The notes: generated by a model not told the origin, from the letters alone. DNA of 64,000 nucleotides from a virus (IMGVR_UViG_3300005613_000009:1-64000); one strand, 5' to 3'; positions 23,501 through 35,971 are shown, counted from the stretch's first letter. Numbers and translations: made by a program.

Positions 23501-23664
23501 TCTTTTATTCTTTCAAAACCTTTTTTATCTTTAAAGTCAAATTTTATTTTATCAAACCCTGTTTGAATTTTTTTAACAACACCTATTGCCTTAGTTGAAA
23601 GCTTTTCTAGGTTTTCCGAGGCATCTTTTGTTTCTATAGTAATATTTAAATGTCCATCAGCCAT
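11545..23664 (-). CDS. Tape measure protein, 4039 aa
   Basis: Follows the tail chaperone pair; long helical sequence; C-terminal FAEGGITSGP...ELHGTEAVIPL motif typical of TMPs. Confidence 0.92.
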   Translation of the reverse strand: MADGHLNITIETKDASENLEKLSTKAIGVVKKIQTGFDKIKFDFKDKKGFERIKEELKEVLEASQQLMGGFQKLRQVESNAVKAGLLPEYNKKIGKSYIYATEQLKAFEKAYTRLSKMSLTKQQQLSLELKAIATEAERATNAWNKFFNSFIRKVQVATRQVEELKRAQKTLLLPQKSLSVSDMVLIPEKAQSQQLEKTRNAIANIVEQEKAWTSSAKNRIVSLNNANKIEEKELITLKNLHRTKKESQALSKEEWTQSLKNASAINREADQWQNFNKIYSKMSTNRQRTTKETIVDTQKMVNAWTTAGQKRITVLTNTNRAEKKHLVSNREYLKQLAEGANKISKQSNAWDSFSSSFSKMSAKHRQGLEQVNSNTQEMISLDKKRILSLNDLNKIEEKGLIQTKNLHRVQKEGTSICTKLQAEEKNRIALLKQNYTQLGKLSNQTKSYKTFVHQLVEKQMSSNKVMQESVSVNKFAEAGRIELSRGITRLTKQLENGTISQKEYDSTMGQIVQRQKELDTASDKVTKRLNAQTKAEKETVHAHQSNSDKVNKLIKQYDQGNISLKKFTEQMRKYGAENIADKETVKKWEKHGQLIRIATAEMDKFGYSYKKMGKFSKAAFGLNTKEAEDFTRHLKNHQKNIKNMEGAYGRLHGQIIKANKAQQLFNNTFAKISVYMSGFAATIFVFQYLARWASQIVTHFMGWARSLDNLQQHFDLTVKEIKALGEVSRIFGRTTTISAQEAVKALRNYMKAGQSAAEAVESLQEKWEKSESHDKIKSLDDALKMLKNTIGDMNLEFFETYNEQIIEAIEKFKWWVKENEDGLLAIGKSFAELIEKISKVVLFFSDLQEYAKVGKEKTSFLGYLNGIPGLEAFHTILGYILSDHKEINIEIEKELAKQKEALNLENQIKALEATRIRNLGVMIKYSGDEFVVRYQALKKFTNNWVSFHEDLKKANLELYNAYLSHAKSTFAQIYDLRVTSEQKIQDKISSIYNNNEKQILKSQIDKIKKSYIDRLDLVEKYSKSYLLILKRMYKEIEKETKKIDVYKWYELLPEKEQNLPEIKRLKKIEDYTQQVTQEFLKLWGKAYDLDSEAAKKYIKFKVDLWKKEYDDTVKLLEVGMSAEDKAVNKLILEFDKAMKELDKKKLKDAEKFTADKKKLMEKGITSEHKAVYALELAFIAAMKVLDKKKLEDVEKFTADKKKLMEKGITSEYEAIYALELAFTAAMKALDKKKLEDREKFTANKKKLIEKGITSENEAVYALELAFITAMKELDKKKLKDAEKFTADKKKLMEKGITSEYEAVYELELAFIAAMKALDKKKLKDVEKFTADKKKLMEKGITSEHEAIYALELAFIAAMKALDKKKLEDREKFLADRKKLTETGIMAEYKAVYALELVFMAAMKALDKKKLEDREKFITDKKKLIEKGITSEDEAIYALELAFIAAMKELDKKKLEDSEKFIADKKELMEKGITSEYEAIYALELAFTAAMKKLDKKKADSGKKYRNDKLQAMKSLYSDLSKVSGDYYALQKEIIANEYEKYKEALGLKLKANQQYNEQQKKDLALLNEWLAQEQLKIDQDTWKKSGGLFGGVAAYLSEMKNDFKHFYEDIGQLGYESFEMIGDAFEETVVKVLKGDFDDIGDLWNEMLEEMLDDLIKTVAKMIKEWAMMELGNIVFDNESGLLSGLITTASKAAADIAVEQAITKVATDELGTLTLEGISTLSTISGGATAAEGAGLTTGALLAEIMPPLAIAMAVLFTHMKFSESQANHPSELITRSSMKVPEYSSPEYDPNALFEIMLNDLYTINGGWNPADVQNLLAGQIGKQIQAVTDTYNGIFRNISKKSQAELRETFADFDELRLLMSKTANDGARLYSTAALGKFAPNPFDSLNYQSATVPTNQYSTKMVDSFGVKEFDTALQAISKIIGKYFEKYVEEAVSGLKGHDMFEFMTDEIQDAINNADLESFINDIDAFGEAFGENSEKMRKAKIIWDDFNRFIYGEDAVDYTQLEKVTATAQAQLDSFVEKMKEFGKEMTDEEIADKLKSITKDLSEGIDLDELTSPMTTLDKLIASINGQFDAYLEMLEEQGVDLSKITDLEEKRNDAIERQINEFVDFLFETITKTLNSLLNKTSSLEDQLVKVFEAFDEIFKEAGQFTYAKISELLPEAGLDYEGMPKGFEIKDWIGDPSETSEWHTAWKKLKASLKEVSDEAKELNGILEDLASGKTDSAIEHFQNILDALLKPKGNELDFDLLKADMSHQFANDITQINKQIAGLRRDEYGYLIYELKGVGDAASGLAYRLEEFVSEVTDMSNEELVTALGNITGAVETYREKINKTLSGATSKWNLTNEDVAYLNSILTWLDTFEGNITIFEDRLSDLMQSTGSEEEIQRVRDIMADIGVGDFEEAIRYLNDELRDLEDSGTGTAAEIAKLRKEIADMEAATEAFNAMERKQLEVLKAQMGLFGDDYGKNLRIDEISDRYKDAMEHWGLTLEDLPDAFKTMDLDELKAYAKSLGLDWQDVVGDIAFLIEYFEDLADQAQRIEDAKDKIRGIDDNTPDWQKSINKIESRYGLTKGSIDEDYWDQIKAGFLDMDEDELQKMADDFGVSIDQLIADILALSDAFDAADAEAQAFIDAQDKIRGTYDDSPEWQKSINKIEDRYGLTRGSIDEDYWDQIKKGFLNMSQDDLQKMADDFDVPLTQLINDILALSDAFDEAAAETESIIDAQNELLGMGDSWQEKIASMERKLGFQPGDISLDDIANIKEKFLESDTDEVKAWAKSLGMTVDELIAAIFELTDAFDQAGAEINMIRQAQWDLSGKSGWQHELALLEEQLNLEPGDLNMDSFKDIIDRFNESPESVQAWADELNMSVTDLIGYINSIADAFEAKNVEMAAFEEAQWQLSGTEKEGKIARLEDKYGLERGGLSEDWVRALVEQFISDDYDTMLENANRWGVTVSEISEDVLWLADAFEIAGQELETSAEQIRANLEKIREQFDLAAFEKAGGTQAEYTWQKIMDIQGDPNVPSMMLPGDLLEMSELLDVWVQERIAEETSVLQLWQQVADRITSLVDSIDSTIQSIKYSNLNVNLPRSKFEEARSDYATLYAAAQAGDATAIEKFISFASTYLEQAQAEFKSSQAYQDIYAGVMSDLEEMRTALKAGDYDQLIYDELSGIHDDLVLNLDAIESQFETVAQWIEARLAALEQVADPPPIPPPDPDPPEPPEDLDTDIIRAIEHLNEDLMEVMQSLLDYTNDMVGLLIGVEENAWRLNKFLGADYVNWEKLSEAWDFINPTSSAGTDAVEGNGDLMEAMRSLLDYTSDIVGLLIGIEENIWRLNEFLGADYVNWDKLSEAWTFINPTASNGPDAIEGAGGFTFDNDGALEVSGTFGGDFTFDNDGYLKVTLPDGAYDELGMGFGSATPNMRDPISVYGLGLEWLDVSSEVWERNLKELGITGLLSGVLTYVTHLSGIERLNATSVGLLLGILQNTAVLAGYIAGQYQDIGSTAGYFNYPDISDYINSDTWITDTNNFKEDIDGLIETLKFDDSGALEVSGDLTVNFPTELDVNIASSDITLDVNIESSDITFETTTAEDAQELKLWWNIAGLLIGIEENIWRLTDFLGSDYVDFAELSRSWGGFEVPEGYEDINAITGARQFENTTFSNMNNMWLSSGSPYTKTMEQLGPEGLLAGILAFSRHLSGIEDKLGTGDGSTGAYLSSFEFEDHALKTTASVSVDMDETNDILEDIETNTQGADDNTNTLKNGFLDKIQFKDAALKVYVTGGSLDASVNTFGPGDFDLDRLGSTAYYTGLGEKWKDETSNLYNTPIGTLGVLGLLSGILTYVTHLRAIEENTNDLTNLDKLTGENIQGSWYGNNTTDVLMGIANRRDSWSVFGNRYKEDEYDRRIGINTLGVMGWLAIIAAHSQNIDDNTFNLNKKMDITGYKDAEYRLPEFAEGGITSGPLSGYPVELHGTEAVIPLSGGAIPVKFVNDAPAPQQLSDRPIYITLEIDGKPLDAKIKKISDEVRVTVERRPNNNKGRKVYP
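11900..13950 (-). repeat. C-terminal TMP repeats
   Basis: LIG(V/I)EEN(A/I)WRL..FLG.DYV x3, the first two 198 bp apart (CAATTAACATAATC at 13631 and 13829); GLL(S/A)G(V/I)L...HL x3; F.FD.DG.L.V motifs. Boundaries approximate. Confidence 0.8.
14750..16270 (-). repeat. About six degenerate acidic helical repeats (~85-90 aa) in TMP
   Basis: Units ending YFED, AFDA, AFDE, AFDQ, AFEA, AFEI. The two closest copies are 270 bp apart (TGGTCCCAAT at 15641 and 15911). Confidence 0.85.
19178..20270 (-). repeat. 132-bp (44-aa) tandem repeat, about 8 copies, in TMP
   Basis: TTATCC anchor at 19178, 19310, 19442, 19574, 19706, 19838, 19970, 20102, 20234; unit resembles ADKKKLMEKGITSEHEAIYALELAFIAAMKALDKKKLEDREKFT. 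Confidence 0.97.
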
Positions 23665-23694
23665 TTTTTATCTACCATTTGCCCCGTGAAAAGT

Positions 23695-24114
23695 TTATTT
23701 AACCGGCCTTTTTGGAGGCCGTACACCATTTGTCTTTGGCTTATCCTTTTCAGATTCTTTTTTCTGTTTGTCGTGTTGAAGCTTTACAAAATGTTCATCA
23801 ATGAACTGGATCCAGTGGATATATTCCTTGCGTTCTTCATAATTAAATATAAGTTCCTCGTTTAGATAACAGACTATTTCCGAAAAACTGATATAACCAA
23901 TCCCGAACCCCGTTGCCCTTGAATTAGAAAGGGTATGAAATGCTACATAATATGGAACAACATCTTGGAAAAGTTCTGGTTTATCTTGTAAAGCAGGCAA
24001 CAATGTAGCTGTTCTTCCACGTTTTGCTGCCTGCTCATCTCTTTCCTCCTGGAGCTTTAGAAACCATTCGTATTTATCCCCGTATCTATTTTGCCACTCC
24101 AGGAAATCAATTAG
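23695..24114 (-). CDS. Tail assembly chaperone, -1 frame extension (lambda gpT-like)
   Basis: The frame of ORF 23695..24003 stays open upstream to the slippery site (LIDFLEWQNRYGDKYEWF...) and is -1 relative to 24111..24509. Confidence 0.8.
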   Translation of the reverse strand, partial: LIDFLEWQNRYGDKYEWFLKLQEERDEQAAKRGRTATLLPALQDKPELFQDVVPYYVAFHTLSNSRATGFGIGYISFSEIVCYLNEELIFNYEERKEYIHWIQFIDEHFVKLQHDKQKKESEKDKPKTNGVRPPKRPVK

Positions 24115-24509
24115 TTTTTTTCAGTTTCCTTGTCTTCTTCAGCCCTGAATGATTCCATATCATTCGCAAAATCGCTTACATCATCACGGAAGTCGCGGTA
24201 ATCTGTGAGCAATCGAACAGCATTTTCATAAGAATAAGGGACAGGTTTACCATCTTCCTCCAGTCCGGACCAATCCAACAGGATTGATTTTGCCATAGCT
24301 TTGATCAATAGTTTATCTGCGACTTCATCGTTAAGCGATCCACGTCTAAGAGCTTGTTTATGTGGTTTGGTAATCTTCCGAAATGCTTTTTGGTATTGGG
24401 GATTCCCGATCCTCGCTACTTTGACCTTGACTTTTTCTCCAATATCTTGCCAAACACCATCGATTTCCGCGTTCTTGTTTGTGCCAAACATCTTTCTAAT
24501 ATCACCCAT
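24111..24509 (-). CDS. Tail assembly chaperone (lambda gpG-like)
   Basis: 132 aa between tail tube and TMP; ARIGNPQY, LLDWSGL, PYSYENA motifs; SD AAGGAG. Confidence 0.85.
   Translation of the reverse strand: MGDIRKMFGTNKNAEIDGVWQDIGEKVKVKVARIGNPQYQKAFRKITKPHKQALRRGSLNDEVADKLLIKAMAKSILLDWSGLEEDGKPVPYSYENAVRLLTDYRDFRDDVSDFANDMESFRAEEDKETEKN
24114..24120 (-). other. Programmed -1 ribosomal frameshift heptamer A AAA AAC
   Basis: mRNA GAA AAA AAC TAA at the end of the chaperone gene; XXXYYYZ pattern in the canonical G/GT position. Confidence 0.8.
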
Positions 24510-24550
24510 TTTTTTCTCCTTTTCAGTAATGCTTTAAAAAAGCGATTTAT

Positions 24551-24660
24551 GTTAGCCCCGTTCTTGCGGGTTGGACTGTGGATCAGAATGACGGGGGAAC
24601 ATTTTGATCCAAGCTAACAGGATTTTGAAAATCACAGAGGGAACCTGTTGTCCAACCCGC
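24551..24660. ncRNA. Candidate structured RNA (three-way junction, possible pseudoknot)
   Basis: 11-bp outer stem GCGGGTTGGAC (24566-76) / GTCCAACCCGC (24650-60) encloses two stems, GGATCAGAATG/CATTTTGATCC and AACAGG/CCTGTT. No family recognised. Confidence 0.45.
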
Positions 24661-24676
24661 GGATTTATTCTCTTTC

Positions 24677-24727
24677 AAAAAAAAAGGCCGAACAAAGCGA
24701 CAATTATCCATCGCATTGATCGGCCTT
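24677..24727 (-). terminator. Intrinsic terminator after the tail tube gene
   Basis: mRNA AAGGCCGA.CAA.GCGA-loop-TCGC.TTG.TCGGCC followed by U9. Confidence 0.8.
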
Positions 24728-24737
24728 CATGAGGCTC
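24722..24737 (-). promoter_or_regulatory. Leader hairpin box copy 2 (GAGCCT-CATGA-AGGCC), overlapping the terminator 5' arm
   Basis: Sequence match to the boxes at 26001-26018 and 34199-34216. Confidence 0.55.
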
Positions 24738-24793
24738 TATGGCCCTACTATTTATGGCCTTATTTAATTGTCAAATAAGCTACAGGTTATTGT

Positions 24794-25975
24794 TTATGCT
24801 GAAAACTTATCGATTTGTATCTGGCAATCAGTGTTTGTATCTCGTTTTGCTCGCCATCCGATATTTTCCATAACATCAGAATTTTGGCCACCTGCATTTA
24901 TAGCATCAGTTTCAATTTCTATTGCAGGAAAAGTATAGACATAACAATTTCCGAGTGAGTCCTCAACAGCAAAGCTAAGCCCGGTTGCAGTTCCAGCAAG
25001 GTATTTATCATACAATGTTGAATCCAGAAAGTAAACATTCATCGTTCCTGTAATTTCGCATGTACCTACACCGATATCCACGTTAGCGATTGAACCAATG
25101 GCTCTTAGCCCACGAACATTATTGTTCAACGAGAATGAAAGTTCAGAGATGTATAAATCCGTATCCTTCGTTGCCAATGACGAAAATGCACCTTCGAATA
25201 TTTCGCCAACATTGCTTGAAGCATTCATAACAGGATTGGAACCAGCAGCATTGTTAGCACCGGATCCACCAGTTGATTGTGCAAGTGTTGCACTTTTTCC
25301 AATAAAATCAAAACTGCCTGTTAAAACACTGTCCGCGGAAGCGGAAATATTCAATGTATTGACGACCATACCTGTGTAATCAAAGAATTGGACGGCATCA
25401 GAATGTTCGCGTTCAAATGTAAAACTTGATTCTGTAACACCATTCCGTATGTAAGATCCTGCAATTACAATAGTCTGAGTTCCAGTGGCTTCCGTAGTAG
25501 GTGGCGATGGCGCTACGGATAGACCGGTTGTAGCTGTAGATGTAATCCTGTAAAGCCGGTTGTTTCCGGAATTTGTGGCTCCTGACACAGAAATCCATTG
25601 ACCAGTTACAAGAGCTGAAAAATTTGTGCTGTTTTCAGCATAAATTCTTCCGGAAGTATTATTGAATCCAATTTCACCACTTCTTGAAATTGTAGATGCT
25701 GTAGACCAACCGCTTGACCATAAAGCCGCTGCAAGCAATGTATCATACTCACTGTATGATAATTCAAAATCAAACCCACCGGAACAACTTGCACCAGTTT
25801 GAATAATGTCTGTAACCTGACGATCATTTCTGATCTCTTCACTTTGTGTATTGGTTATATTGTAAGCAAATGATTCACCTTTGAATCGTAGTTCTGTTAA
25901 TGCAGAAGATGGAGTTTCACCCCAAGTTGTTTCTGCAAGATACGCTAAACCTGTTCTATTTGTATCAGTTGCCAT
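24794..25975 (-). CDS. Major tail tube protein
   Basis: 393 aa; LAYLAETTWGETP, SEEIRNDRQV, GGFDFELS and ITGTMNVYF motifs of phage tube proteins; strong SD CAGGAGG. Confidence 0.88.
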   Translation of the reverse strand: MATDTNRTGLAYLAETTWGETPSSALTELRFKGESFAYNITNTQSEEIRNDRQVTDIIQTGASCSGGFDFELSYSEYDTLLAAALWSSGWSTASTISRSGEIGFNNTSGRIYAENSTNFSALVTGQWISVSGATNSGNNRLYRITSTATTGLSVAPSPPTTEATGTQTIVIAGSYIRNGVTESSFTFEREHSDAVQFFDYTGMVVNTLNISASADSVLTGSFDFIGKSATLAQSTGGSGANNAAGSNPVMNASSNVGEIFEGAFSSLATKDTDLYISELSFSLNNNVRGLRAIGSIANVDIGVGTCEITGTMNVYFLDSTLYDKYLAGTATGLSFAVEDSLGNCYVYTFPAIEIETDAINAGGQNSDVMENIGWRAKRDTNTDCQIQIDKFSA

Positions 25976-26000
25976 TTGTTGTTCCTCCTGTTAATATTTT

Positions 26001-26018
26001 GGTCTTCACAGGAGACTC
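26001..26018 (-). promoter_or_regulatory. Leader hairpin box copy 3 (GAGTCT-CCTGTGA-AGACC), anti-SD for tail tube
   Basis: Compensatory GTCT/AGAC versus GCCT/AGGC; CTCCTGT is complementary to the SD region ACAGGAG (25985-25991). Confidence 0.6.
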
Positions 26019-26062
26019 ATAGATTAAAAATATAAAATCGAAAGTACTCGTTTTGCGCAAAC

Positions 26063-26476
26063 TTAAAAATATTCATCATATGTGTAGGGAATAATAACAA
26101 TATGCCTAAACCATTCTCCTTCCCTCATTTGGTTCTCTAAATATCCTGCTTGACAAGTTAACCCGTTTGATTGCCAGCCTTGTCCTTTTGAATTCTTAAA
26201 TATTCCAATTGCTGTATCAGCTAAATCATCGCCAACTTTTGCGCCAGTATCGATTGTAGAAGTCATGATATTAATTTCAACAAAACCAATTGATCTAACT
26301 AATGGATGATTGCCCATAGATGCATAACTGGAATCATTAGGGGTAATCTTAAAAGTTACAAAACTTGTTCCAGATACAGGTTCATAATCGACATTTTCCC
26401 ACACAATAGGAGTCCTGGATGCCCATTGATCATTAAATCTTACTTCAAGAAGTGTTCGAATTGCTGATACTGTCAT
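26063..26476 (-). CDS. Tail terminator protein
   Basis: 137 aa directly upstream of the tube gene; TPIVWENVDYEP motif. Confidence 0.75.
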   Translation of the reverse strand: MTVSAIRTLLEVRFNDQWASRTPIVWENVDYEPVSGTSFVTFKITPNDSSYASMGNHPLVRSIGFVEINIMTSTIDTGAKVGDDLADTAIGIFKNSKGQGWQSNGLTCQAGYLENQMREGEWFRHIVIIPYTYDEYF

Positions 26477-26985
26477 AGCCTGTTTTCTCTGTATTTACGT
26501 TGTGCCCTTCGTACAATTGAAGGTAAATACCGACTGAAATACTGCTTTGTTCTTGTAAATGGATAATACCCTTCAGCCCTTGGCCAACCTGTCCCCCATT
26601 CCACATTGAAATTATGAGGCACTTCATTTGTTATAACAAATTTATCATGGACTTTGGCCTGTGATAATTTTGCCTTTAATTGTTTAAGATGAGCTGTACG
26701 TCGTGCATAATTAATCTTTTTACGGTGCATCTTAGAAACAATCGTATAAGGTTCTCTGCTTGGACCATTTATTCCTAACCGGTGACTAAGCATGTACGAC
26801 CCCAAACTATAATCTGGCCGTTTTGATCGACCTTTTGGCTTTCTGTCAGGAGCTGGTGAACAATCTGTTAAATACCTGAAAACACTTGTTGTTACAAATT
26901 TCGAGACAAAAAGAACTTCTTCACCAACCTCTTTTTTAAACTTATCGATTGCAATCTCAAAATCTCTTATGTTTGAAGTTGTCAT
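26473..26985 (-). CDS. Tail completion / neck protein (HK97 gp10-like position)
   Basis: 170 aa, basic; ITNEVPHNFNVEWG motif; synteny. Confidence 0.6.
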   Translation of the reverse strand: MTTSNIRDFEIAIDKFKKEVGEEVLFVSKFVTTSVFRYLTDCSPAPDRKPKGRSKRPDYSLGSYMLSHRLGINGPSREPYTIVSKMHRKKINYARRTAHLKQLKAKLSQAKVHDKFVITNEVPHNFNVEWGTGWPRAEGYYPFTRTKQYFSRYLPSIVRRAQRKYRENRL

Positions 26986-27149
26986 GTTACATCAACTATC
27001 CCTGTTTTCATGTTTTTGCGTTCAACAATCTTTCGACTTGTGAATTTATTGATTTTTGCGCACCTGGGACATTTGATAACGATTTGCCCTGGATCTCCTA
27101 CACCCAACAACTTATTGCAGTTGTAACAACGATTTTGCTGGTTTAGCAT
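26982..27149 (-). CDS. Com-like zinc-finger protein
   Basis: RCYNCNKLLG...IVIKCPRCAKIN matches the Mu Com pattern. Start moved from 27185 to 27149 (AAGGA SD just after the upstream stop). Confidence 0.7.
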   Translation of the reverse strand: MLNQQNRCYNCNKLLGVGDPGQIVIKCPRCAKINKFTSRKIVERKNMKTGIVDVT

Positions 27150-27157
27150 AGAATCCT

Positions 27158-27523
27158 TTATGGTTTTCTTGTTTGTAATATCCATAACGCATTAGCCGGA
27201 TCAACTTTTTTATTTACAACATTCCATCGTTTACTATCAGCTTCCATGTAATCATGGTTAGACGGTATTATTGGCAGATTTTCAACAGGGATCATTGCAA
27301 TTTGATCTGTATTTAATATCGTAACGCCATCCACATCTTCAGATTCGTATTCATCGAAAATAACTGAAACGGTATAATTTGTAGCTGATGTTGAAACAGC
27401 ACCCGTTGCAGGGTTATAACTTGCATTTGCAGTAACATGCGTATAGGTTACCGATGTTTTGATATTTCCGGAAACCTCGAATGCCATTTGCGCTGCAGCT
27501 TTAAAAACTTCCTGAAGACCCAT
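27158..27523 (-). CDS. Head-tail joining (stopper) protein
   Basis: 121 aa; SYNPATG...; DPANALWILQTRK; synteny. Confidence 0.7.
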   Translation of the reverse strand: MGLQEVFKAAAQMAFEVSGNIKTSVTYTHVTANASYNPATGAVSTSATNYTVSVIFDEYESEDVDGVTILNTDQIAMIPVENLPIIPSNHDYMEADSKRWNVVNKKVDPANALWILQTRKP

Positions 27524-27528
27524 ATGAA

Positions 27529-27768
27529 TTATTCCTGATGATCTTTCTTGCTAAAAAAACTATATTTAGATTTTTCGATCGGCTCTTCCGGATCATTTTC
27601 AATCGAGTTCTCTTCTTCAATTTCAGGAGCTTCAACTGTATCTGAAACCTCAAATGTCGTAGTTTGAATATACGGTGTGTAAGATGCCTTTCCAGTTTTT
27701 ACTAATTTCTGGCCTTCAACCGCAGTTACTTTCTTGTAAGATCCATCTTCAAAATATACGGTAATCAT
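27529..27768 (-). CDS. Hypothetical protein with acidic C-terminus
   Basis: 79 aa, SD AAGGAG, in operon. Confidence 0.6.
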   Translation of the reverse strand: MITVYFEDGSYKKVTAVEGQKLVKTGKASYTPYIQTTTFEVSDTVEAPEIEEENSIENDPEEPIEKSKYSFFSKKDHQE

Positions 27769-27785
27769 TTGGTTCTCCTTCCTAA

Positions 27786-28310
27786 TTAAATTCTTTCTAG
27801 ATTTCTAGTTCGTGCATAACTTCGGGTCCCATAATCTTTGATCATTGCCCATACTGATAACGGCATCACTGGCCGTCTATCTTGTTTGTCTACCTCAAAG
27901 CTTAATGATGCAACTTTAAGTTTTTTGAATCCATATGTATCAAAATCAGATGTTCTGTCTTCAGAAAGTAGATATATAGCGTATTCAGATGTGGCCCTGA
28001 CTAAAAACTTTGGGATTAAATCTTCATCTATCTCATTTCCATCAGAATCATATATGTTTTCCCTTGGCCATCGCAAGGCCTGGTTTTCAGGACCAATACC
28101 TGTTGGATCTGATTTTGAACCATTCCAGTCCATTTGATCGTCTAACAACCTGGTTGCCCATACAAGACATGCATTTCTGTTTGCAGTTGTCGCAGAAGAC
28201 CATGTTGAATAAGTATGAATATTCTGTTCAAGAAACTCACTAGCTGAAGCTAACGTAGCATAACTGTTAGACGTTGCAGCACCTGGTGTTGTTATTAAAG
28301 TTATTGCCAT
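27786..28310 (-). CDS. Head-tail adaptor (DnaT-like ssDNA-binding family)
   Basis: GAATSNSYATLASA, QALRWPR and IPKFLVRATSEYA motifs; synteny. Confidence 0.75.
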   Translation of the reverse strand: MAITLITTPGAATSNSYATLASASEFLEQNIHTYSTWSSATTANRNACLVWATRLLDDQMDWNGSKSDPTGIGPENQALRWPRENIYDSDGNEIDEDLIPKFLVRATSEYAIYLLSEDRTSDFDTYGFKKLKVASLSFEVDKQDRRPVMPLSVWAMIKDYGTRSYARTRNLERI

Positions 28311-28385
28311 TTCTAGAACCTTTTACAATTCTCTATCATTTTCAGACAAGTAACAGTTACCTCATCTTTGCTGTCAAAATCTACT

Positions 28386-29195
28386 TTAATATGTTGCAGT
28401 TGCAGTTTTGACATAATATTTGACCTGTAACCAAGATACCCCGATAAGCTGTCCATAATCATCTTCGGTGTCTGACACATCCCGGTTCAGTAAAAACCGC
28501 ACAGTTTCACCCGGCGCAAGGTCAGTAATTGTTATAACCGTCCAACCGGTTGACCACGCATCCCATTGGGCGTTTGCACCCGCATCCCCGTTCAGATCGT
28601 CTTCCTCTGTGACAACGGTGTCGCCTTCCGTGCAAGTTATTAGATCACCATCGCCATACGAGCATCCCGCAATCTGGAACGCCACTCCTTCATCAGCTGC
28701 CGGAGCGGTTAAGTTTGTTATTACACCCTTTACCCGTACTTTGATCTGATTAGCTGTGGCTTCATATAAATTTACAGGTACTTGCCACTCTATCAATACG
28801 TCCTCATCAGCATCAGAAGCGAACGTCCGATATTCGGTCTGGTCGTGGGCTGCTGCGGCGTCAGGTGCACTTGTTCCATTTTGTGCCCAACCTATGGGAA
28901 TGGAATCGATATCGACGTAATAAATTGTGGATAGTGAAGAAGATGAACCAGCACTCAAAGCACCAGTGACAGTAACCGTTGTTCCATCATCACTCATCAT
29001 TGAATTTTCAAACCCGCTTGCGCCCATTTTTGGGATATTATTATCGGTGACTCCCGTTAAATCAACAGTAACAAATCGCGGACTGCCGCCAGACTCGCTA
29101 TAATTCGAATATGGTCCATAGTCTTTAGCAAACGAAAATCCAGCCATTAAAAAGTATGTTAATAATCCTATGCCAAATACTTTTAATACCTTCAT
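28386..29195 (-). CDS. Signal-peptide protein with beta-sandwich C-terminal domain
   Basis: MKVLKVFGIGLLTYFLMAGFSFA-KD; shares a cassette with 1..756; the C-terminal part looks GC-richer. Confidence 0.7.
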   Translation of the reverse strand: MKVLKVFGIGLLTYFLMAGFSFAKDYGPYSNYSESGGSPRFVTVDLTGVTDNNIPKMGASGFENSMMSDDGTTVTVTGALSAGSSSSLSTIYYVDIDSIPIGWAQNGTSAPDAAAAHDQTEYRTFASDADEDVLIEWQVPVNLYEATANQIKVRVKGVITNLTAPAADEGVAFQIAGCSYGDGDLITCTEGDTVVTEEDDLNGDAGANAQWDAWSTGWTVITITDLAPGETVRFLLNRDVSDTEDDYGQLIGVSWLQVKYYVKTATATY

Positions 29196-29207
29196 GCTAC
29201 TCTCTCC

Positions 29208-29615
29208 CTATTTGTAAAACATGACCGATACTTTAGCGGCACTTTCGGAAATAATTCCGATAGTTGCTGAATCTAAATAACGAACAGACGGATTTAGCTC
29301 AGATCCTGTTCCGTCCGTAGTGTCTCCAGCAGGAATAGCTGCAACACCACCAATTTTTACCCATATATCAGCATCAGCACAAAATACTGCAAATTTCGCT
29401 CCTGTTGGAGCTGTAACTGCTTTATTCGTATTTATAGTTAAGACATATGTGTTTATATAACCTTGCTGAATAGCAAAATTTGTATCAGGAGTTGTTGCAA
29501 CATCTTCATCAATAACGGATGAAAACTTTTTGTAACTGACAAAAGGATCTAAAGCCCATACATTTCCGGCTAAGAAGAATAGACACAAAGCAAAAATGGT
29601 CAGATTTTTTTTCAT
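29208..29615 (-). CDS. Signal-peptide protein, possible head decoration-like fold
   Basis: MKKNLTIFALCLFFLAGNVWA-LD; AAIPAGDTTDGTGSELNPSVR. Confidence 0.7.
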   Translation of the reverse strand: MKKNLTIFALCLFFLAGNVWALDPFVSYKKFSSVIDEDVATTPDTNFAIQQGYINTYVLTINTNKAVTAPTGAKFAVFCADADIWVKIGGVAAIPAGDTTDGTGSELNPSVRYLDSATIGIISESAAKVSVMFYK

Positions 29616-29664
29616 AATTATACCTCTTTGTGGAAAAAATTTACTAAAATCTATTCTCTATCGA

Positions 29665-29976
29665 CTAATCCTTTTTGTTATCTGTAGCTGAAGGTTTATC
29701 GATATTGTTGTTAAAAAACATTATCTCTTCCTTGGGTTTTGTTTGTGTATCCAACGATTTTTCTTCGAATGATTCTTTACGAACTTTTTTCTCTTTTACA
29801 GGTTTTTTCTCTTTTTTGATCGGTTTTATATTCTGTTTTTCGTCTGTTTTTGGTGGACGACCACGTTTTACATCAGGTAATTTTTCCGTGTATTTACCTG
29901 TAGCCAAAGCCGTTTTGATATCTACTGCATGATGTATCGTAACAGGTTGTCTGTTTTGATCGTATAGAATAGCCAT
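29665..29976 (-). CDS. Lys-rich hypothetical protein (head region)
   Basis: 103 aa; KRGRPPK (AT-hook-like); SD CAGGAGG. Confidence 0.65.
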   Translation of the reverse strand: MAILYDQNRQPVTIHHAVDIKTALATGKYTEKLPDVKRGRPPKTDEKQNIKPIKKEKKPVKEKKVRKESFEEKSLDTQTKPKEEIMFFNNNIDKPSATDNKKD

Positions 29977-29997
29977 GATTAAATCCTCCTGGTAAAA

Positions 29998-31329
29998 TTA
30001 TTTTCTTATAATCTTAAGTCCAATATCTTCTATGCTTTGGACTGTTTTAATAATGGATTCAGGGATGACATATTGTTTCATCTCTGGAAAACCCATTCGA
30101 TTAAAAAGACTTGTTAAATCGTTTGTTAAGCCATTTTTAAATTTAGGATTTGTTTTCGGTAGATTGTTTTTTATTTCGTTGAAAACACGTTTTAAATCAT
30201 GTAGTTGAATCAATAAATAATGAAAATGGCAAAACCCCAATGCCTCTGGGACCTGCGTAAAAATGAATTTACTACCTTTAAGAGTTGGGTCTTTTTCATA
30301 TTGTTCATATAGCTCAATAAATCGTTTGGATCCCAATATGGTTAAATCAGCCCTTCGTTGCCATACCCCATATTCTGTTAAGGCCATAGCCATATCCAAA
30401 TCATTAGGCAATGCCTTCAATCCCATATTTAACCACTCATTAGCTTTTTCAGCGTTTTCCATGGCAACATAGCAATGAAAAATACAGTAATAAATATCAA
30501 ACATAAATTGGTTGTCTTGTGTTGCTTGGTTTTTTTGCTTTATATATTTTTCACCATATTCGATTGCTTTTTCATTTTCATTGTAGAGAGCATAATGCTG
30601 TGCTAAATAAAAATATGCCAAGTGATCATCAGGATTAATTTCAATGCGTTTTTTGAGTAAACTTTCAGTTCGTTGTCGTTTTCTCTTAGATTGTTCCGGG
30701 GTAAGATCATATCCGTAATGTCGAATAAATATATCATCGACAACAAGAGTTTTGACACCTTCTACGATTGGTTGGTTGTGAACAATACCTTCATAATGAA
30801 TTTTACCTTTTCTAAATATGCGAGAAGAATTGAATTTAAGCATAGTTTGATCTTTTTGAACATCTTCAAACAAAATGGCTAATCCGTGGATCTGGGAAGG
30901 AATATTTGCAAGAGATTTTCTGAAGCCATGGCTATTTGTTTTCATGAATAATTCTTCATCAGCATCAATAATCATTAACCAGTCAGAAGATGCATGTTGG
31001 ATAGAAAGATTGCGGTATTTTGAGAAATCATCAATGATTTCGCCTTCAAATGGATAGTTGAAAACCTTAGCACCATAGGATTCGCAAACTTTTACGGTGT
31101 TGTCCGTTGATCCTGTATCAATGATAATTATTTCATCTACATTATCCTTAACGGATTTGAGACATCGATCTATATTTTTTTCCTCATTTTTGACCATCAT
31201 ACATGCAGAGATCGTAGGCTGTTTTGGCAATTGGACGATATTGTTATGCAAGTTAACGGCTTTTTTTATCCGTTTCTTATTTGTTTTCCGTTTTCTATTC
31301 GCAATAACTTTTTGTTTATTTTTTGACAT
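29998..31329 (-). CDS. GT2 glycosyltransferase with TPR-like C-terminus, paralog A
   Basis: ISACMMVKNEE, IIDTGSTD, IIDADEE (DXD), HYGYD, helical TPR-like tail; basic N-terminal extension. Confidence 0.9.
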   Translation of the reverse strand: MSKNKQKVIANRKRKTNKKRIKKAVNLHNNIVQLPKQPTISACMMVKNEEKNIDRCLKSVKDNVDEIIIIDTGSTDNTVKVCESYGAKVFNYPFEGEIIDDFSKYRNLSIQHASSDWLMIIDADEELFMKTNSHGFRKSLANIPSQIHGLAILFEDVQKDQTMLKFNSSRIFRKGKIHYEGIVHNQPIVEGVKTLVVDDIFIRHYGYDLTPEQSKRKRQRTESLLKKRIEINPDDHLAYFYLAQHYALYNENEKAIEYGEKYIKQKNQATQDNQFMFDIYYCIFHCYVAMENAEKANEWLNMGLKALPNDLDMAMALTEYGVWQRRADLTILGSKRFIELYEQYEKDPTLKGSKFIFTQVPEALGFCHFHYLLIQLHDLKRVFNEIKNNLPKTNPKFKNGLTNDLTSLFNRMGFPEMKQYVIPESIIKTVQSIEDIGLKIIRK

Positions 31330-32589
31330 TTAAGCAGCTTTCTTTATGATTTCAGAAGTAGATAAATTATCTAGAATTAATTCATTGGACAACTTCTTTG
31401 GGTTAATATTTGCTCCAAAAGATTGCACAAGATCTTTCATGGAATTCAGATTTAAAACGACCTCAAGATCTTTTGTCATACCGTTTTTGAAATCAGGGTG
31501 AGTTTCGTTTAATATTTTATATAGATTGTTAACATTTACTAATGTTTGTTTTGCTAATACTGCAACAAGATTAAACAAGACAAAAGACACTGATTCAGGA
31601 GAAAGGCTATATATGAATCGGCTCCCTCTCAAATCAGGATTTGCTTGAAATCGTTCGTAAAGATTCAAGAAATTCCTTGCGCCATTTAAAACCATAAGTT
31701 CGTTTTGTTGCCATGCCCCAAACTCTACAATACATCGGGCAACATCGATGTCTGTTGGTAATTCCTCGGATCCTATTTTGAGCCATTCTTGAGTTTTTTC
31801 GACATTTCGCAAATTAATATATGAGTGAATCATTGTGTAGTAGATAGACGACATAAATTGTTTTTCTTTTATTGCCTGATCTTTATACTTAATATATTTT
31901 TCACCATAGTTGACTGCATTTATAAAGTCTCTATTGGCTGCGTAATATTGGTTTAGATAAAAATATGCCATATAATCATCTGGATTTTCCTTGATACGCT
32001 TTTCTAACAGGGTTTTGGTCCGAATGTTTTTCTTTTCTCTTTCTTCTGGCGTTAGATCATATCCGTAGTGTTTAATAAATGCTTTGTCTGTAAACTTTGT
32101 ACTATTCTCAGAAATATTAGGTTGATTATGGACCGAATCTTTATATCGAATAGCACCATTTCGAAAAAGACGAGATGATACGAATTCAACAACTTTCATA
32201 TTTTTCTGCATATCATTTACTATAATCGCAGCACCTAAATATTTACTGGAAAGATCAAAAAGATATTGTTTAAAAGCAGTCGGAGTTATATTGGATAAAT
32301 AGAATTCTTCATCAGCATCGATAATCAAAATCCATTCAGATGTGGCATAACTAATAGATTGATTTCGATGTAGGCTAAAATCGTTCATCCATGGATGTGA
32401 ATAAACTTTTGCGCCGAATTGTTTACAAATGTTTGGAGAAGTATCTTTCGAACCGGTATCAACAACAATAATTTCGTCAGCAATTTCCTTAATTGACGAC
32501 AAACATCGATGAAGGTTTTTTTCCTCATCTCGGACCATCATACAAACCGAAAGCGTATTGTTTCGAAAGGCTTCACTCATTCCAAACAT
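31330..32589 (-). CDS. GT2 glycosyltransferase with TPR-like C-terminus, paralog B
   Basis: LSVCMMVRDEE, VVDTGSKD, IIDADEE, HYGYD; tandem paralog of A. Confidence 0.9.
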   Translation of the reverse strand: MFGMSEAFRNNTLSVCMMVRDEEKNLHRCLSSIKEIADEIIVVDTGSKDTSPNICKQFGAKVYSHPWMNDFSLHRNQSISYATSEWILIIDADEEFYLSNITPTAFKQYLFDLSSKYLGAAIIVNDMQKNMKVVEFVSSRLFRNGAIRYKDSVHNQPNISENSTKFTDKAFIKHYGYDLTPEEREKKNIRTKTLLEKRIKENPDDYMAYFYLNQYYAANRDFINAVNYGEKYIKYKDQAIKEKQFMSSIYYTMIHSYINLRNVEKTQEWLKIGSEELPTDIDVARCIVEFGAWQQNELMVLNGARNFLNLYERFQANPDLRGSRFIYSLSPESVSFVLFNLVAVLAKQTLVNVNNLYKILNETHPDFKNGMTKDLEVVLNLNSMKDLVQSFGANINPKKLSNELILDNLSTSEIIKKAA

Positions 32590-32612
32590 TCTCCATTTTT
32601 CGATGTTTTTAT

Positions 32613-32656
32613 AAAAAACTGTCTGGTTGCGGTCAAAAGACCGCAGTAACCAGACA
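32613..32656 (-). terminator. Intrinsic terminator after capsid cement gene
   Basis: mRNA TGTCTGGTT(AC)TGCGGTC-TTTT-GACCGCA-ACCAGACA followed by GTTTTTT. Confidence 0.75.
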
Positions 32657-32673
32657 AAATAATGGGCTAATAT

Positions 32674-33117
32674 TTATGCACGGCCTTTGGCCATTTGAGC
32701 GGTATATGTAATACCAGTACCAGTAGTTCCGGTTACAGTTGTATAGATCCGAAGATACCGATAAACAGTATCAGAGAACATATTACTCCAGAACATCTTA
32801 TAAAGTCCGGCTGCATCACTTCTGGTTGCCTTATTTGCACTTGAACCTCCAAGCTCTATAGTCGCCAGAGTAACAATAGGTGTGGCGAAAGTTGAACTTG
32901 CGGAACCCTGTAGGGAAATCTCATACAGAATGTCACCAGTGGATGAAGTTCCATCAATTGCACTTACATAAATATCAACAAGCCCAGTTGTGTATCCGCC
33001 ACCTGTATCAAAAATTTTTGCGACAGCATCTACCGAGGCCAATGCACTTGATGTAACAGCGTAAGAATCTTTCATCTCACATTCTGCATCCCAGATTATT
33101 TTTCTATTATCTAACAT
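32674..33117 (-). CDS. Capsid cement/decoration protein (Bbp16-like)
   Basis: 147 aa directly after MCP; beta-rich, Ser/Thr-rich, YRYLRIYTTVTGT end motif. Confidence 0.65.
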   Translation of the reverse strand: MLDNRKIIWDAECEMKDSYAVTSSALASVDAVAKIFDTGGGYTTGLVDIYVSAIDGTSSTGDILYEISLQGSASSTFATPIVTLATIELGGSSANKATRSDAAGLYKMFWSNMFSDTVYRYLRIYTTVTGTTGTGITYTAQMAKGRA

Positions 33118-33187
33118 ATTGGAATCTCCTTTGTTAAAAGAGTTATATAGTTAAAACAGGTTACCTGCTTTGTATATGGACCAAATC

Positions 33188-34117
33188 TTACGCAGCTACA
33201 GTACCATCAATAACACTCCATAGTCTGGCTGCTGCTTTTGGACGCATGATAGACATAGTGATATACCATTCAACCCTGGTCCGAAAAACCGGTTTTTCAT
33301 CGATTTCACCCAAATCCCTAACGTCCATTTCGCCATTTTGAAGGCCAACAACCCCTGTATCATCGAGAGATACACAATAAATCGATGTACTATTCAAATG
33401 GGAATTACTGTTGGTTTCTGTAAACGGCATAATATCGGTATTGGTATTATCTTTATCAACAATAAGAATAGGCAAATCATTGAATTTGGTAACCCTATGT
33501 CCAAAAGAATCTTGATCATAAGTGATATATCCGCCGACAGAAGCACTTCTTGAAGCAGCACTTAATCGCCGTCTCATGGTTTTATTCATAATCAAATGGG
33601 TAGGATCCTCGACCGCATCAATCAACTCATCAAGTTTAGTCAATGAAAGTACAACGCCACTACTAGCACTGGCTGCAATCAATTGATCACCTGTACAACG
33701 TACTTGAAGACCGTCAAACCCTTTTGGATCAGAAGTTACATCACCTTTAATAAACTCTTTGGTCATTGCCAGTGATATTGCTTTGATCTTCATTGATTCC
33801 TGTGTTGCTCTTTGATCAATACCGCCTGTTTTTACCAACATAACGTCAACATCAAGGTCACCACCTGCAATAGCCAGAGACTCCGTAACCCTCTCAGTCT
33901 CACCAGTTCCTTCGGTATAACTCTCGTTTACGCCACGAAACCCGGCGTTCGGCAATGTTTTTTCACGGTTGAAAGACAAAGCATTTCCATCGATGTTGTC
34001 AAAAGGCATATACTGAAGGATATCGGAATTTTTCGCATAAAGTTCCATTACCGATGCCCTAAGTGCTTCATCTCTTCCAAGAGCAATTTTTGCTGATTCT
34101 ACTAATGTTAATGCCAT
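33188..34117 (-). CDS. Major capsid protein
   Basis: Start MALTLVES at 34117 (SD ACAGGAGG), 309 aa; YNRE-like SFNREKTLP, FDGL, RTRVEWY motifs; follows the scaffold gene. Confidence 0.88.
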   Translation of the reverse strand: MALTLVESAKIALGRDEALRASVMELYAKNSDILQYMPFDNIDGNALSFNREKTLPNAGFRGVNESYTEGTGETERVTESLAIAGGDLDVDVMLVKTGGIDQRATQESMKIKAISLAMTKEFIKGDVTSDPKGFDGLQVRCTGDQLIAASASSGVVLSLTKLDELIDAVEDPTHLIMNKTMRRRLSAASRSASVGGYITYDQDSFGHRVTKFNDLPILIVDKDNTNTDIMPFTETNSNSHLNSTSIYCVSLDDTGVVGLQNGEMDVRDLGEIDEKPVFRTRVEWYITMSIMRPKAAARLWSVIDGTVAA

Positions 34118-34156
34118 TGATAGTTCCTCCTGTTTCAGGTTAGAATCTGTTTGGAC

Positions 34157-34204
34157 AAAAAAAAGGCCAAACAAGTTTATAAAAGATTAACTTTCTTTGG
34201 CCTT
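34157..34204 (-). terminator. Intrinsic terminator in the capsid leader
   Basis: mRNA AAGGCCAAA.AAG...CTT.TTTGGCC followed by U8, between scaffold stop and MCP start. Confidence 0.75.
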
Positions 34205-34216
34205 CACAGGAGGCTC
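34199..34216 (-). promoter_or_regulatory. Leader hairpin box copy 1 (GAGCCT-CCTGTGA-AGGCC)
   Basis: Overlaps the terminator 5' arm; CCTCCTGT is the exact complement of the MCP SD ACAGGAGG (34126-34133). Confidence 0.6.
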
Positions 34217-34264
34217 GTACTTAACTTTTTTTGGCCCAGAAAAAATCGAATGTAGATAATGCAC

Positions 34265-35086
34265 TTATGCTGCTTGTTGACGATGTAGATGTTTTAAACG
34301 TTCCGTAGGAGATAGTTTACTCAAATGGTCTCTTACCTCTTTTTGGTTTGTTGACGTATTACCACCAGCACCGGAACCTCCACCTGTCACACGCATAATT
34401 CGATCTTTCATGGGATACGCATCGATGACAACGCCCAAAGCTTCTTCAAAATCTGCGATTTCGCCTGGTTGTTCTTTGGAAAAGATTTTTTCTCCATTGA
34501 TATAACCAACGACACGCGCATTTGCACCTTCGCCTTCTACTTTAAAATTTTTCGAAAAGTAGTTTGCAGCAATATCGGATGGTAAGGTTGTCTTATCTGC
34601 AATCGTAGGAGAGCTCGCAAAACGAGAATTAACCATTAATTCATAAATAGTTTCGTCTTTGGAACCAAGTGCATTGTTTAACTGTCCCATTTTCTTTTCC
34701 CAAGACCTATTAATTTCGCCCTCTTTTTCTACAAATGCCTTATGCATTTCGGCTTTTAGTGTTTCTACCTGGCCTGCTTTGACAAGATCACCATCCTTTA
34801 AATTTGCAACTGTTTCAAGAGCTTTTTTGGCTTCGGCAGGATCTAAATCCTCAAACTCTTTCAATTTTTCATTGATTTGTTCGGGATCCATTTCACCATA
34901 AAGTTTCAGCTTCTCGCTGGCTTCTTTATAATTGGTATAGTGCCGATTTTTTTCATCAGCTAAATTAGAAATCTTACTGACTGCAGCCTGTGCGTCAAAC
35001 GGTACTTCTTGTCCATCATCATGTATATAAATTGGTTTACCTTCAACTATGACTGCATTTCCGTTCTCATCGAGTTTAAGTTCCAT
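34265..35086 (-). CDS. Capsid scaffolding protein (DUF6651-like)
   Basis: MELKLDENGNAVIVEGKPIYIHDDGQEVPFDA, coiled coil, GGGSGAGG linker, LSPTERL end; upstream of MCP. Confidence 0.8.
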   Translation of the reverse strand: MELKLDENGNAVIVEGKPIYIHDDGQEVPFDAQAAVSKISNLADEKNRHYTNYKEASEKLKLYGEMDPEQINEKLKEFEDLDPAEAKKALETVANLKDGDLVKAGQVETLKAEMHKAFVEKEGEINRSWEKKMGQLNNALGSKDETIYELMVNSRFASSPTIADKTTLPSDIAANYFSKNFKVEGEGANARVVGYINGEKIFSKEQPGEIADFEEALGVVIDAYPMKDRIMRVTGGGSGAGGNTSTNQKEVRDHLSKLSPTERLKHLHRQQAA

Positions 35087-35108
35087 GGCATCACGCCTCC
35101 TGTTTAAT

Positions 35109-35122
35109 TTGACTCACGTCAA
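35109..35122. promoter_or_regulatory. Palindrome TTGAC-N4-GTCAA upstream of the scaffold SD
   Basis: Perfect 5-bp inverted repeat; GTGA (GNRA) loop on the mRNA strand. Confidence 0.4.
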
Positions 35123-35317
35123 GTTTCAAAATTATAAAACATACCTCTTAGTTAGTATTAGTTAATAAGTTTATTAATCACTATTTCCTTTAGCGAACTT
35201 TTATCACAAAAGTTACTGAAATAGACTTCCTTAACCTTATGAAATATAATTACCTAAAGAATTTAATAGCGTTAGTTATTTTATGGTTACAATAAAAATT
35301 TAAAAAGTCAATTGCCA

Positions 35318-35356
35318 TTTTGGGATATTTTGTCCTCTTTTGGAATATTCATGTCC
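35318..35356. repeat. Tandem operator-like repeat in the divergent intergenic region
   Basis: TTTTGGGATATTTTGTCC (35318-35) and TTTTGGAATATTCATGTCC (35338-56), 20 bp apart. Confidence 0.5.
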
Positions 35357-35449
35357 ATTCTACTGTTATAAAGCCATATCCAGTATTGACATTAACAATA
35401 GATATCATTTATGTTAGTAAAAACCCAAAATCATACAAGGGATATAGCT

Positions 35450-35971
35450 ATGCCAGAAAAATCCGAAAAAGCCCTACTTAAAACCAATAAAGACTTTCAT
35501 GTTGCAAACAAGAATAGCAAAAGTCAAAAACAGCTAAACTATAATCAAAGAATGTTTTTATTATGTTTTCCCAAAAGTGGGTTTAATATTGCAAAGACAT
35601 GCAGGATTATAGGAATTACAAGGAAGATGTTTAAGAAGTGGCTTAGGGAAAATTCTTTGTTTAAAGAAAAATTTGAGGATTCCAATGAAGAGCAACTTGA
35701 TTTTGTTGAATCGGTTTTATTTCAAAACATTCAACATCAAAATAAGTTTGTATCGAATGTTGCAACAATCTTTTACCTGAAAACAAAAGGAAAGAAACGT
35801 GGCTACATAGAACGTCCGGAATTGAATATCAATCTAAATGATAAAAGAAGCAAAGATGAGATTGACGCTATCGTTCGAGCTGCAGAACAAACAGACGATA
35901 TCGTAATTGATGCTCAAGTTGTTCAAGAAACAACACCGAATGTTCAAATTCCTGAAAACTCAGAATCTTAG
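35450..35971 (+). CDS. terS: Terminase small subunit (HTH type)
   Basis: NIAKTCRIIGITRKMFKKW HTH; ATIFYLKTKGKKRGY motif; upstream of terL. Start MPEKS after SD AAGGG (track start 35411). Confidence 0.75.
   Translation: MPEKSEKALLKTNKDFHVANKNSKSQKQLNYNQRMFLLCFPKSGFNIAKTCRIIGITRKMFKKWLRENSLFKEKFEDSNEEQLDFVESVLFQNIQHQNKFVSNVATIFYLKTKGKKRGYIERPELNINLNDKRSKDEIDAIVRAAEQTDDIVIDAQVVQETTPNVQIPENSES

Follow-up and report, generated by a model that had tools for sequence, protein, structure and literature searches.

Why do the leaders of the major capsid and tail-tube genes of an uncultured phage, and the region directly following the tube gene, carry the same small hairpin, interlocked with a ribosome-binding site or a terminator? 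The question is raised by IMGVR_UViG_3300005613_000009:1-64000, the first 64 kb (the whole stretch analysed, hereafter the window) of a 119,981-bp uncultured virus record. An earlier note on this DNA had described three intergenic copies of the hairpin and proposed a protein-stabilised RNA switch, analogous to BglG ribonucleic antiterminator (RAT) sites or to the action of phage Mu Com on mom; conservation, covariation, mutual exclusivity of the structures and co-occurrence of the hairpins with Com-like genes, all read from sequence, support that proposal. The hairpins are very likely real, functional RNA elements, and the preferred reading, to which a probability of roughly 0.6 is assigned, is that a Com-type protein would bind and lock them, so freeing ribosome sites and allowing read-through of terminators.

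Recurrence and covariation of the hairpins

The three sequences quoted in the earlier note are exact on the minus (coding) strand (34216-34199, 26018-26001 and 24737-24722; copies 1 to 3, Table 1), but a fourth copy, at 24414-24399 within the gene for tail assembly chaperone G, had been missed. Copies 1 and 2 agree at 16/18 bases (0.01 matches expected in shuffles) and both differences fall on one base pair, C-G to U-A, so the change from GCCT/AGGC to GTCT/AGAC is indeed compensatory, as had been noted.

A descriptor was written from features of the Mu Com site (PMC6483171), i.e. GA, a 4-bp stem, the loop C-N2-4-GA, the returning stem and C. It matches the 120-kb record exactly four times, compared with an expectation of 0.135 per 64 kb, with all four matches on the mRNA (minus) strand and within 10 kb (34.2-24.4 kb). 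A strict motif pattern gave 3 matches in the whole record versus 0.03 expected. By contrast, a looser pattern requiring only a T...A closing pair and GAG...CC occurred in chance-level numbers and was rejected.

Capsid and tube proteins served as queries to gather relatives from IMG/VR, JGI, ENA and Logan. The window and six further lineages (G001, L074, L083, L087, L089 and L081), the tube proteins of which are 63-78% identical to that of the window, make up clade A; clade B consists of L135, L138/L139 and L140/L141, with a tube protein ~50% identical to the window's. A named-phage collection yielded no DNA relatives and only distant capsid matches (<60% identity), and a search of genome contigs for prophages or hosts with the tube protein gave no match.

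Clade A holds 16 copies of the hairpin at three orthologous sites, set in flanking leader sequence that has diverged. Among lineages with sequence at the relevant position, the hairpin is present in the capsid leader in 3/3 (the window, L083 and G001), in the tube leader in 6/6 (the window, L083, L087, L089, G001 and L074) and at the post-tube terminator in 7/7. All 16 copies are paired, with the consensus GA, stem GYYU, loop C-N2-4-GA, stem ARRC, C; pair 2 is C-G in 10 copies, U-A in 5 and U-G in 1, pair 3 is C-G in 14 and U-A in 2, and loops are of 5, 6 or 7 nucleotides (nt). In L089 (4612-5892), and also in L081, a GIY-YIG homing-endonuclease gene has been inserted in the interval that separates the tube gene from hairpin 3 and its terminator, without disrupting this regulatory cassette 3' of the insert.

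A covariance model built from 8 copies recovered 14 sites in 189 kb of related DNA, with nothing else below E=5; thus the search of related phages that the earlier note had suggested did find orthologous leader sites, both conserved and covarying. A joint alignment, matched for length, was made of the Mu site with six copies from clade A and two from clade B: each of the 4 pairs covaries and every cell (100%) is paired, a score that 0/500 shuffles reach, while G1, A2, the C that opens the loop, the GA that ends it and the 3' C do not vary. Because MAFFT put the loop gaps in the wrong place, the analysis relied on the covariance model, on length-matched alignments and on registers set by hand. 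Rfam searches of the window gave no match at gathering score, with only weak, chance-level matches in 23500-35500.

The fourth copy lies within coding sequence, where six codons in a row show no synonymous difference among 4 lineages, whereas only 19% of such codons are identical in the rest of the chaperone G gene (P ~5e-5); in L074, hairpin 4 has been erased by 5 synonymous changes.

The retention of both arms around a loop that varies from 5 to 7 nt, together with the one U-G state, argues that the element acts as RNA rather than as DNA. A late promoter, or the operator of a DNA-binding regulator, would fit conservation that extends beyond the stem (GAG...CC) and a position 5' of two major late genes; such a DNA-level site is nevertheless very improbable, in that all copies share one strand, the arms are separated by a spacer of variable length, a T-G state occurs at a covarying pair, terminators immediately follow copies 1 and 3, copy 4 is inside an open reading frame (ORF), and stems can be wholly different between copies with pairing kept.

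Chance resemblance, or a functionless remnant of a duplicated terminator cassette, might likewise be suspected of a stem of only 4 bp, and the exact 18-mer does occur by chance in unrelated genomes. However, the four matches against about 0.14 expected per 64 kb, the orthologous positions in 7 + 3 lineages with diverged flanks and the frozen synonymous sites of copy 4 render this extremely unlikely on the comparative data. The caution in the earlier note that chance could not be excluded for such a stem is overtaken by the uniformly paired copies of the 7 clade A lineages. The exact 18-mer itself has 7 viral and 28 genome-collection matches, mostly in GC-rich unrelated records; these were judged to be due to chance, and the surrounding stretches that were inspected contain no Com-like gene. 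In four unrelated contigs of Bacteroides type (L093, L098, L121 and L122) the copy 1 18-mer opens a conserved GC-rich stretch common to all four, probably an unrelated structured RNA or mobile element, with no Com-like gene nearby. A second GCAAAACGAG copy, at 24850 within coding sequence, shows only partial conservation and was also set aside as probably due to chance.

Competing structures at ribosome sites and terminators

Taken by themselves, the hairpins have little stability (-1.9 to -4.6 kcal/mol). The ACAGGAGG ribosome sites lie 8-17 nt 5' of the capsid and tube start codons, and the sequences complementary to these Shine-Dalgarno (SD) elements are located in the 5' arm and loop of the hairpins (CCUCCUGU in hairpin 1, UCUCCUGU in hairpin 2). 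When the capsid and tube leaders fold freely, the anti-SD pairs with the ribosome site in all but that of L074, and in 11/12 leaders the anti-SD:SD duplexes (-10 to -19 kcal/mol) are excluded by the hairpin. When the hairpin is locked, the probability that the tube SD is unpaired rises from 0.07 to 0.61 in the window, and from 0.02-0.17 to 0.35-0.61 across five lineages. The earlier note had assigned the complementarity between loop and downstream ACAGGAGG to copies 1 and 3; it holds for copy 1, fails for copy 3 and applies instead to copy 2.

A similar correction is needed for the U-tailed terminators, which had been said to share an arm with copies 1 and 2. The sharing is present at copy 1, but hairpin 2 has no terminator and the second case is copy 3. 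The 5' arm of terminator 1 begins at the hairpin 1 loop GA and takes in the hairpin's 3' arm, and the 5' arm of terminator 3 is made up of the hairpin 3 loop GA, its 3' arm and the flanking C; neither terminator forms when the hairpin is forced in folding. The overlap of hairpin and terminator after the tube gene, where the terminators are strong (-21 to -29 kcal/mol), is conserved in 7/7 lineages. In G001 and L074, where AAGC replaces AGGC in the shared arm, matching changes are seen both in the 5' arm of the hairpin (GCCU to GCUU) and in the 3' arm of the terminator (GGCCUU to GGCUUU), a three-way covariation; that both alternative partners of a shared segment covary is the signature of a switch.

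Another capsid-leader design is seen in relatives for which there is no Com match (L009, L010, L012-L018, L021, L040, L057 and L063). Here, the region ~60-200 nt 5' of the start contains between one and three small hairpins that have covarying stems and a loop of the CGGUG type; in the last one (AAUCCC-GGNG-GGGAUU), the 5' arm also belongs to a long U-tailed terminator. These leaders look like an analogous switch working with another factor.

A Com-like zinc ribbon and the likeness to Mu Com

The only match to PF10122 in the whole record is the gene at 26982-27185. The small protein that it encodes is identical to the Mu Com zinc finger at 15/27 residues, with the four cysteines (CxxC...CxxC) in register, and may be regarded as a candidate trans-acting RNA-binding factor. 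In the six clade A lineages with sequence there, the gene is located ~1 kb 5' of the tube gene and its leader, and its product has an invariant 25-residue core. More generally, a Com-family zinc ribbon is encoded in every hairpin phage with enough sequence, and neither a PF10122 match nor a copy of the pairing motif is present in four capsid relatives that differ in their tails and include two complete genomes. The 67-residue protein found no match in the phage collection and no meaningful one among solved structures; a word-indexed search with it produced no candidate, although a profile search did retrieve the family.

In clade B the Com-like gene, which lies directly 3' of the tail-terminator gene, has diverged (L135 scores 23.2 bits against the PF10122 cut-off of 22.9). 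It is just 5' of the tube leader in L135, L140 and L141, with a second tube-like gene intervening in L138. The tube-leader hairpin has the stem ACCU/AGGU and the loop CCGUGA or CAUCGA, and its 5' arm is complementary to the GGAGGU ribosome site. There are two descriptor matches per locus, both on the coding strand, the other being in the second chaperone ORF; shuffles of L135 give a mean of ~0.12 matches (P ~0.003). Where gene and hairpin adjoin, the order com, hairpin, target is that of Mu, here ahead of a tail gene. No descriptor match was obtained in L131 and L132, two prophage loci whose Com-like gene is more distant.

Previous work on Mu Com defines its RNA site in some detail (PMC6483171). 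The native site is GA-AUGC-[CUGCGA]-GCAU-CCC, and the winner of systematic evolution of ligands by exponential enrichment (SELEX) is GA-GAAC-[CAGAGA]-GUUC-C; the sequence of the stem is unconstrained, Com protects GA and the first loop C, the SELEX motif is GAG-N2-CC-N2-3-GAG-N2-CC, and the loop-closing pair is "invariably C-G" (PMC6483171). Comparison of GA-AUGC-[CUGCGA]-GCAU-C with GA-GCCU-[CCUGUGA]-AGGC-C of the window reveals the same architecture; thus the motif that the earlier note did not recognise corresponds to an experimentally defined site. A 5' GA, a 4-bp stem, a first loop C, a terminal loop GA and a 3' C are common to the Mu site, the SELEX winner and the window; the invariant columns of the joint alignment are the positions shared with the Mu site, and GA and the first loop C are those footprinted in Mu. 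In the Mu com-mom locus the descriptor picks the known Com site only.

The arrangement is also similar, in that a small Com-family zinc ribbon is encoded 5' in the same gene string (directly adjacent in clade B), and the target hairpin abuts or overlaps a helix that hides translation signals. By contrast, Mu Com has one target, the window phage four candidate targets, and the DNA-modification target (mom) directly 3' of com in Mu is replaced here by capsid, tube and chaperone genes. Known Com homologues are placed before mom or methyltransferase genes (PMC3299994). A literature search found no paper on Com-like control of virion genes or of terminators. On the contig of P0118 (JGI 3300072015), within a related head-neck module, a Com-like gene of the clade A type (98 aa, amino acids) is immediately followed by an N6/N4 DNA methyltransferase gene, which is similar to the way in which com and a methyltransferase gene are paired in Mu-like prophages.

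Other systems share some of these features. At sites 1 and 3 the protein-stabilised hairpin would share its 3' half with the terminator 5' arm, as with the RAT sites of BglG, SacY and LicT. A RAT is an imperfect hairpin of ~29 nt, whereas the window element is of 16-18 nt, differs in sequence and would also act on ribosome sites. No CAT domain (PF03123) or PRD protein was matched in the phage record by a search that did match control genomes; a host-encoded one is possible. The small hairpins recognised by ANTAR proteins (EutV, AmiR and NasR) likewise have conserved loop bases and overlap the terminator 5' arm. ANTAR sites are two tandem hairpins with fixed hexaloops, as opposed to the single hairpin with a 5-7-nt loop seen here; the ANTAR profile gave no match in the phage record, but gave none in the control either. 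Translational control of phage genes by a small phage protein at a short hairpin near a ribosome site is reminiscent of the MS2 coat operator and of T4 RegA. The MS2 and T4 proteins repress by covering the ribosome site, whereas the present hairpin excludes a masking helix, so that binding should activate; the protein families are also unrelated.

The likeness to Com also bears on two alternatives that share the RNA element itself. Purely cis-acting elements, in which a weak hairpin tunes formation of terminator or SD mask and so fixes the ratios of capsid, tube and downstream tail proteins with no dedicated protein, are in keeping with alternative pairings that are real and conserved, and phages often have leaky terminators 3' of major tail genes. 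Such elements would, however, leave unexplained the constancy of certain unpaired bases (5' GA, first loop C, loop GA and 3' C) across different stems, the occurrence of these bases in the intragenic copy and in the terminator-less copy, the match to the Mu Com site, and the co-occurrence with Com-like genes in two clades; a cis-only mechanism is thus fairly unlikely.

It is quite unlikely that a different factor is responsible, e.g. a host or phage endoribonuclease processing the late polycistronic mRNA, or a host RNA-binding regulator. All of the sites are at boundaries of highly expressed genes, and GGA-like sequences are present in some loops, as such factors might lead one to expect; against this, the loop interior is variable, the window's own copies lack GGA, the invariant positions are those footprinted by Com in Mu, and the Com-like gene of clade B abuts the hairpin just as com abuts its site in Mu. 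The switch is probably a variant of the Mu Com-mom system, acting here on capsid, tube and chaperone genes.

Proposed mechanism, counter-evidence and gene context

In the proposed mechanism the four hairpins would be cis RNA sites for the phage's own Com-like protein. Without bound protein, the weak hairpins would be outcompeted by more stable helices: in the leaders of capsid and tube, the hairpin 5' arm and loop would pair with, and so mask, the ribosome-binding site, and after the tube gene (in the window, in the capsid leader too) the loop GA, 3' arm and flanking C would form the terminator 5' arm. Binding of the protein to the nascent hairpin would lock it, so leaving the ribosome site free for translation of capsid and tube; the locked hairpin would also prevent the terminator from forming, enabling read-through into the genes for the chaperone and the tape measure. 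Whatever the context, formation of the hairpin counters an inhibitory structure, so binding should activate, as Com does at mom. Because two sites overlap intrinsic terminators, antitermination, an activity not known for Com, is also predicted. Given the strength of the post-tube terminators, a locking protein would need to catch the nascent hairpin before the terminator 3' arm emerges, 35-50 nt later.

Several observations weigh against this proposal. The likeness of the protein to Mu Com is confined to the 27-residue zinc-finger core, and the loop-closing pair, C-G in Mu, is U-A in all 16 clade A copies, at site 4 and in clade B, i.e. it differs on both sides with pairing kept. The co-occurrence of hairpin and Com within one clade is not phylogenetically independent; L133 and L134 lack Com hairpins, and G006, with a Com ORF resembling that of clade B, has no hairpin in its tube leader, its two descriptor matches elsewhere (P ~0.02) being ambiguous. 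The Com-like gene is itself located 3' of terminator 1, so its first expression would require leak or an unseen promoter. The competitors of the hairpin are 7-25 kcal/mol more stable, so tight or co-transcriptional binding would be needed; the L074 tube leader is nearly without SD masking, folding gives little SD opening in capsid leaders when the hairpin is locked, and the overlap with a capsid-leader terminator is clear in the window only, with none in G001 and an ambiguous case in L083. Lastly, the clade B sites and site 4 came from a descriptor that already requires pairing and the invariant bases, and since they satisfy it by construction, their evidence lies in enrichment and orthologous position, not in pair counts.

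The features of the locus are collected in Table 1. One minus-strand string of virion genes, which also includes two glycosyltransferases, neck genes, a tail terminator and chaperones, spans 35-11 kb of the window. The phage is long-tailed and siphovirus-like, with strong AGGAGG ribosome sites, and is not of the Mu-like transposable type; the tape measure of its relative L087 exceeds 3300 aa.

Table 1. Positions of hairpins, competing signals and genes in the window
Feature	Position	Strand	Details
Com-type hairpin 1, capsid leader	34199..34216	-	GA, stem GCCU/AGGC, 7-nt loop C..GA, C
Terminator 1, intrinsic	34157..34205	-	long hairpin and T8, -15.2 kcal/mol
Capsid ribosome-binding site ACAGGAGG	34126..34133	-	complementary to hairpin 1 anti-SD; duplex -19.4 kcal/mol
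Com-type hairpin 2, tail-tube leader	26001..26018	-	stem GUCU/AGAC
Tube-gene ribosome-binding site ACAGGAGG	25984..25991	-	masked by anti-SD in free fold
Com-type hairpin 3, directly 3' of tube gene	24722..24737	-	stem GCCU/AGGC, 5-nt loop CAUGA
Terminator 3, intrinsic	24677..24728	-	-24.5 kcal/mol, T9
Com-type hairpin 4, inside chaperone G ORF	24399..24414	-	codons 32-37; stem GGAU/AUCC, loop CGGGA
Com-like zinc-ribbon gene, 67 aa	26982..27185	-	PF10122 Zn_ribbon_Com, 26.7 bits (cut-off 22.9); alternative start 27149
Scaffold gene	35086-34265	-	
Major capsid protein gene	33188..34117	-	phrog_212, E 1.9e-79; start codon 34117
Major tail (tube) protein gene	24794..25975	-	PF18906 Phage_tube_2; start codon 25975
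Tail assembly chaperone G gene, 3' of terminator 3	24111..24509	-	phrog_313
Tape measure ORF, 4039 aa	11545-23664	-	

Further elements lie close to the hairpins. The box GCGCAAAACGAG (window 26047-26058, minus strand), 22-30 nt 5' of hairpin 2, is conserved in 4 lineages (L087, L089 and L083 besides the window) and lacking in G001 and L074; in some cases a small CGAG/CUCG hairpin follows it, and it could represent a promoter or another RNA element. A second structured element (24555-24665, minus strand), with no Rfam match, occupies the interval from terminator 3 to the start of the chaperone; its closing stem (11-13 bp) covaries in at least 7 lineages. An internal CCCCGUC is complementary to a downstream ACGGGG, suggesting a pseudoknot, and L083 shows a compensatory CCCUG/CAGGG change; the element is retained in L133 and L134, both without Com hairpins. 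Elsewhere, in G000 at 72-80 kb and 51-65 kb (minus strand), there are many strong intrinsic terminators, and a T-rich element, ~TTTTTTTATTTGTTTTTTTGTG, is repeated at several intergenic sites and may represent early or middle promoters.

Com is known from a single target, Mu mom, and from homologues preceding methyltransferase genes. In two clades of uncultured phages, a protein-hairpin pair of this kind now seems to control the virion proteins made in greatest abundance, along with read-through into tail genes. If binding does occur, Com-type control would extend to phage morphogenesis, and terminator override would be added to the abilities of a tiny zinc ribbon; the compact pair of a 17-nt RNA and a 60-aa protein, with a specificity unlike that of Mu at the loop-closing pair, could then serve as an orthogonal translational or antitermination switch. 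It may even be, though this is a tentative suggestion, that Com-family zinc ribbons, far from serving mom alone, are widespread RNA-binding late regulators of phages, and that in the present phages one protein commands, via several hairpins of its own, a small virion-gene regulon as both translational activator and antiterminator.

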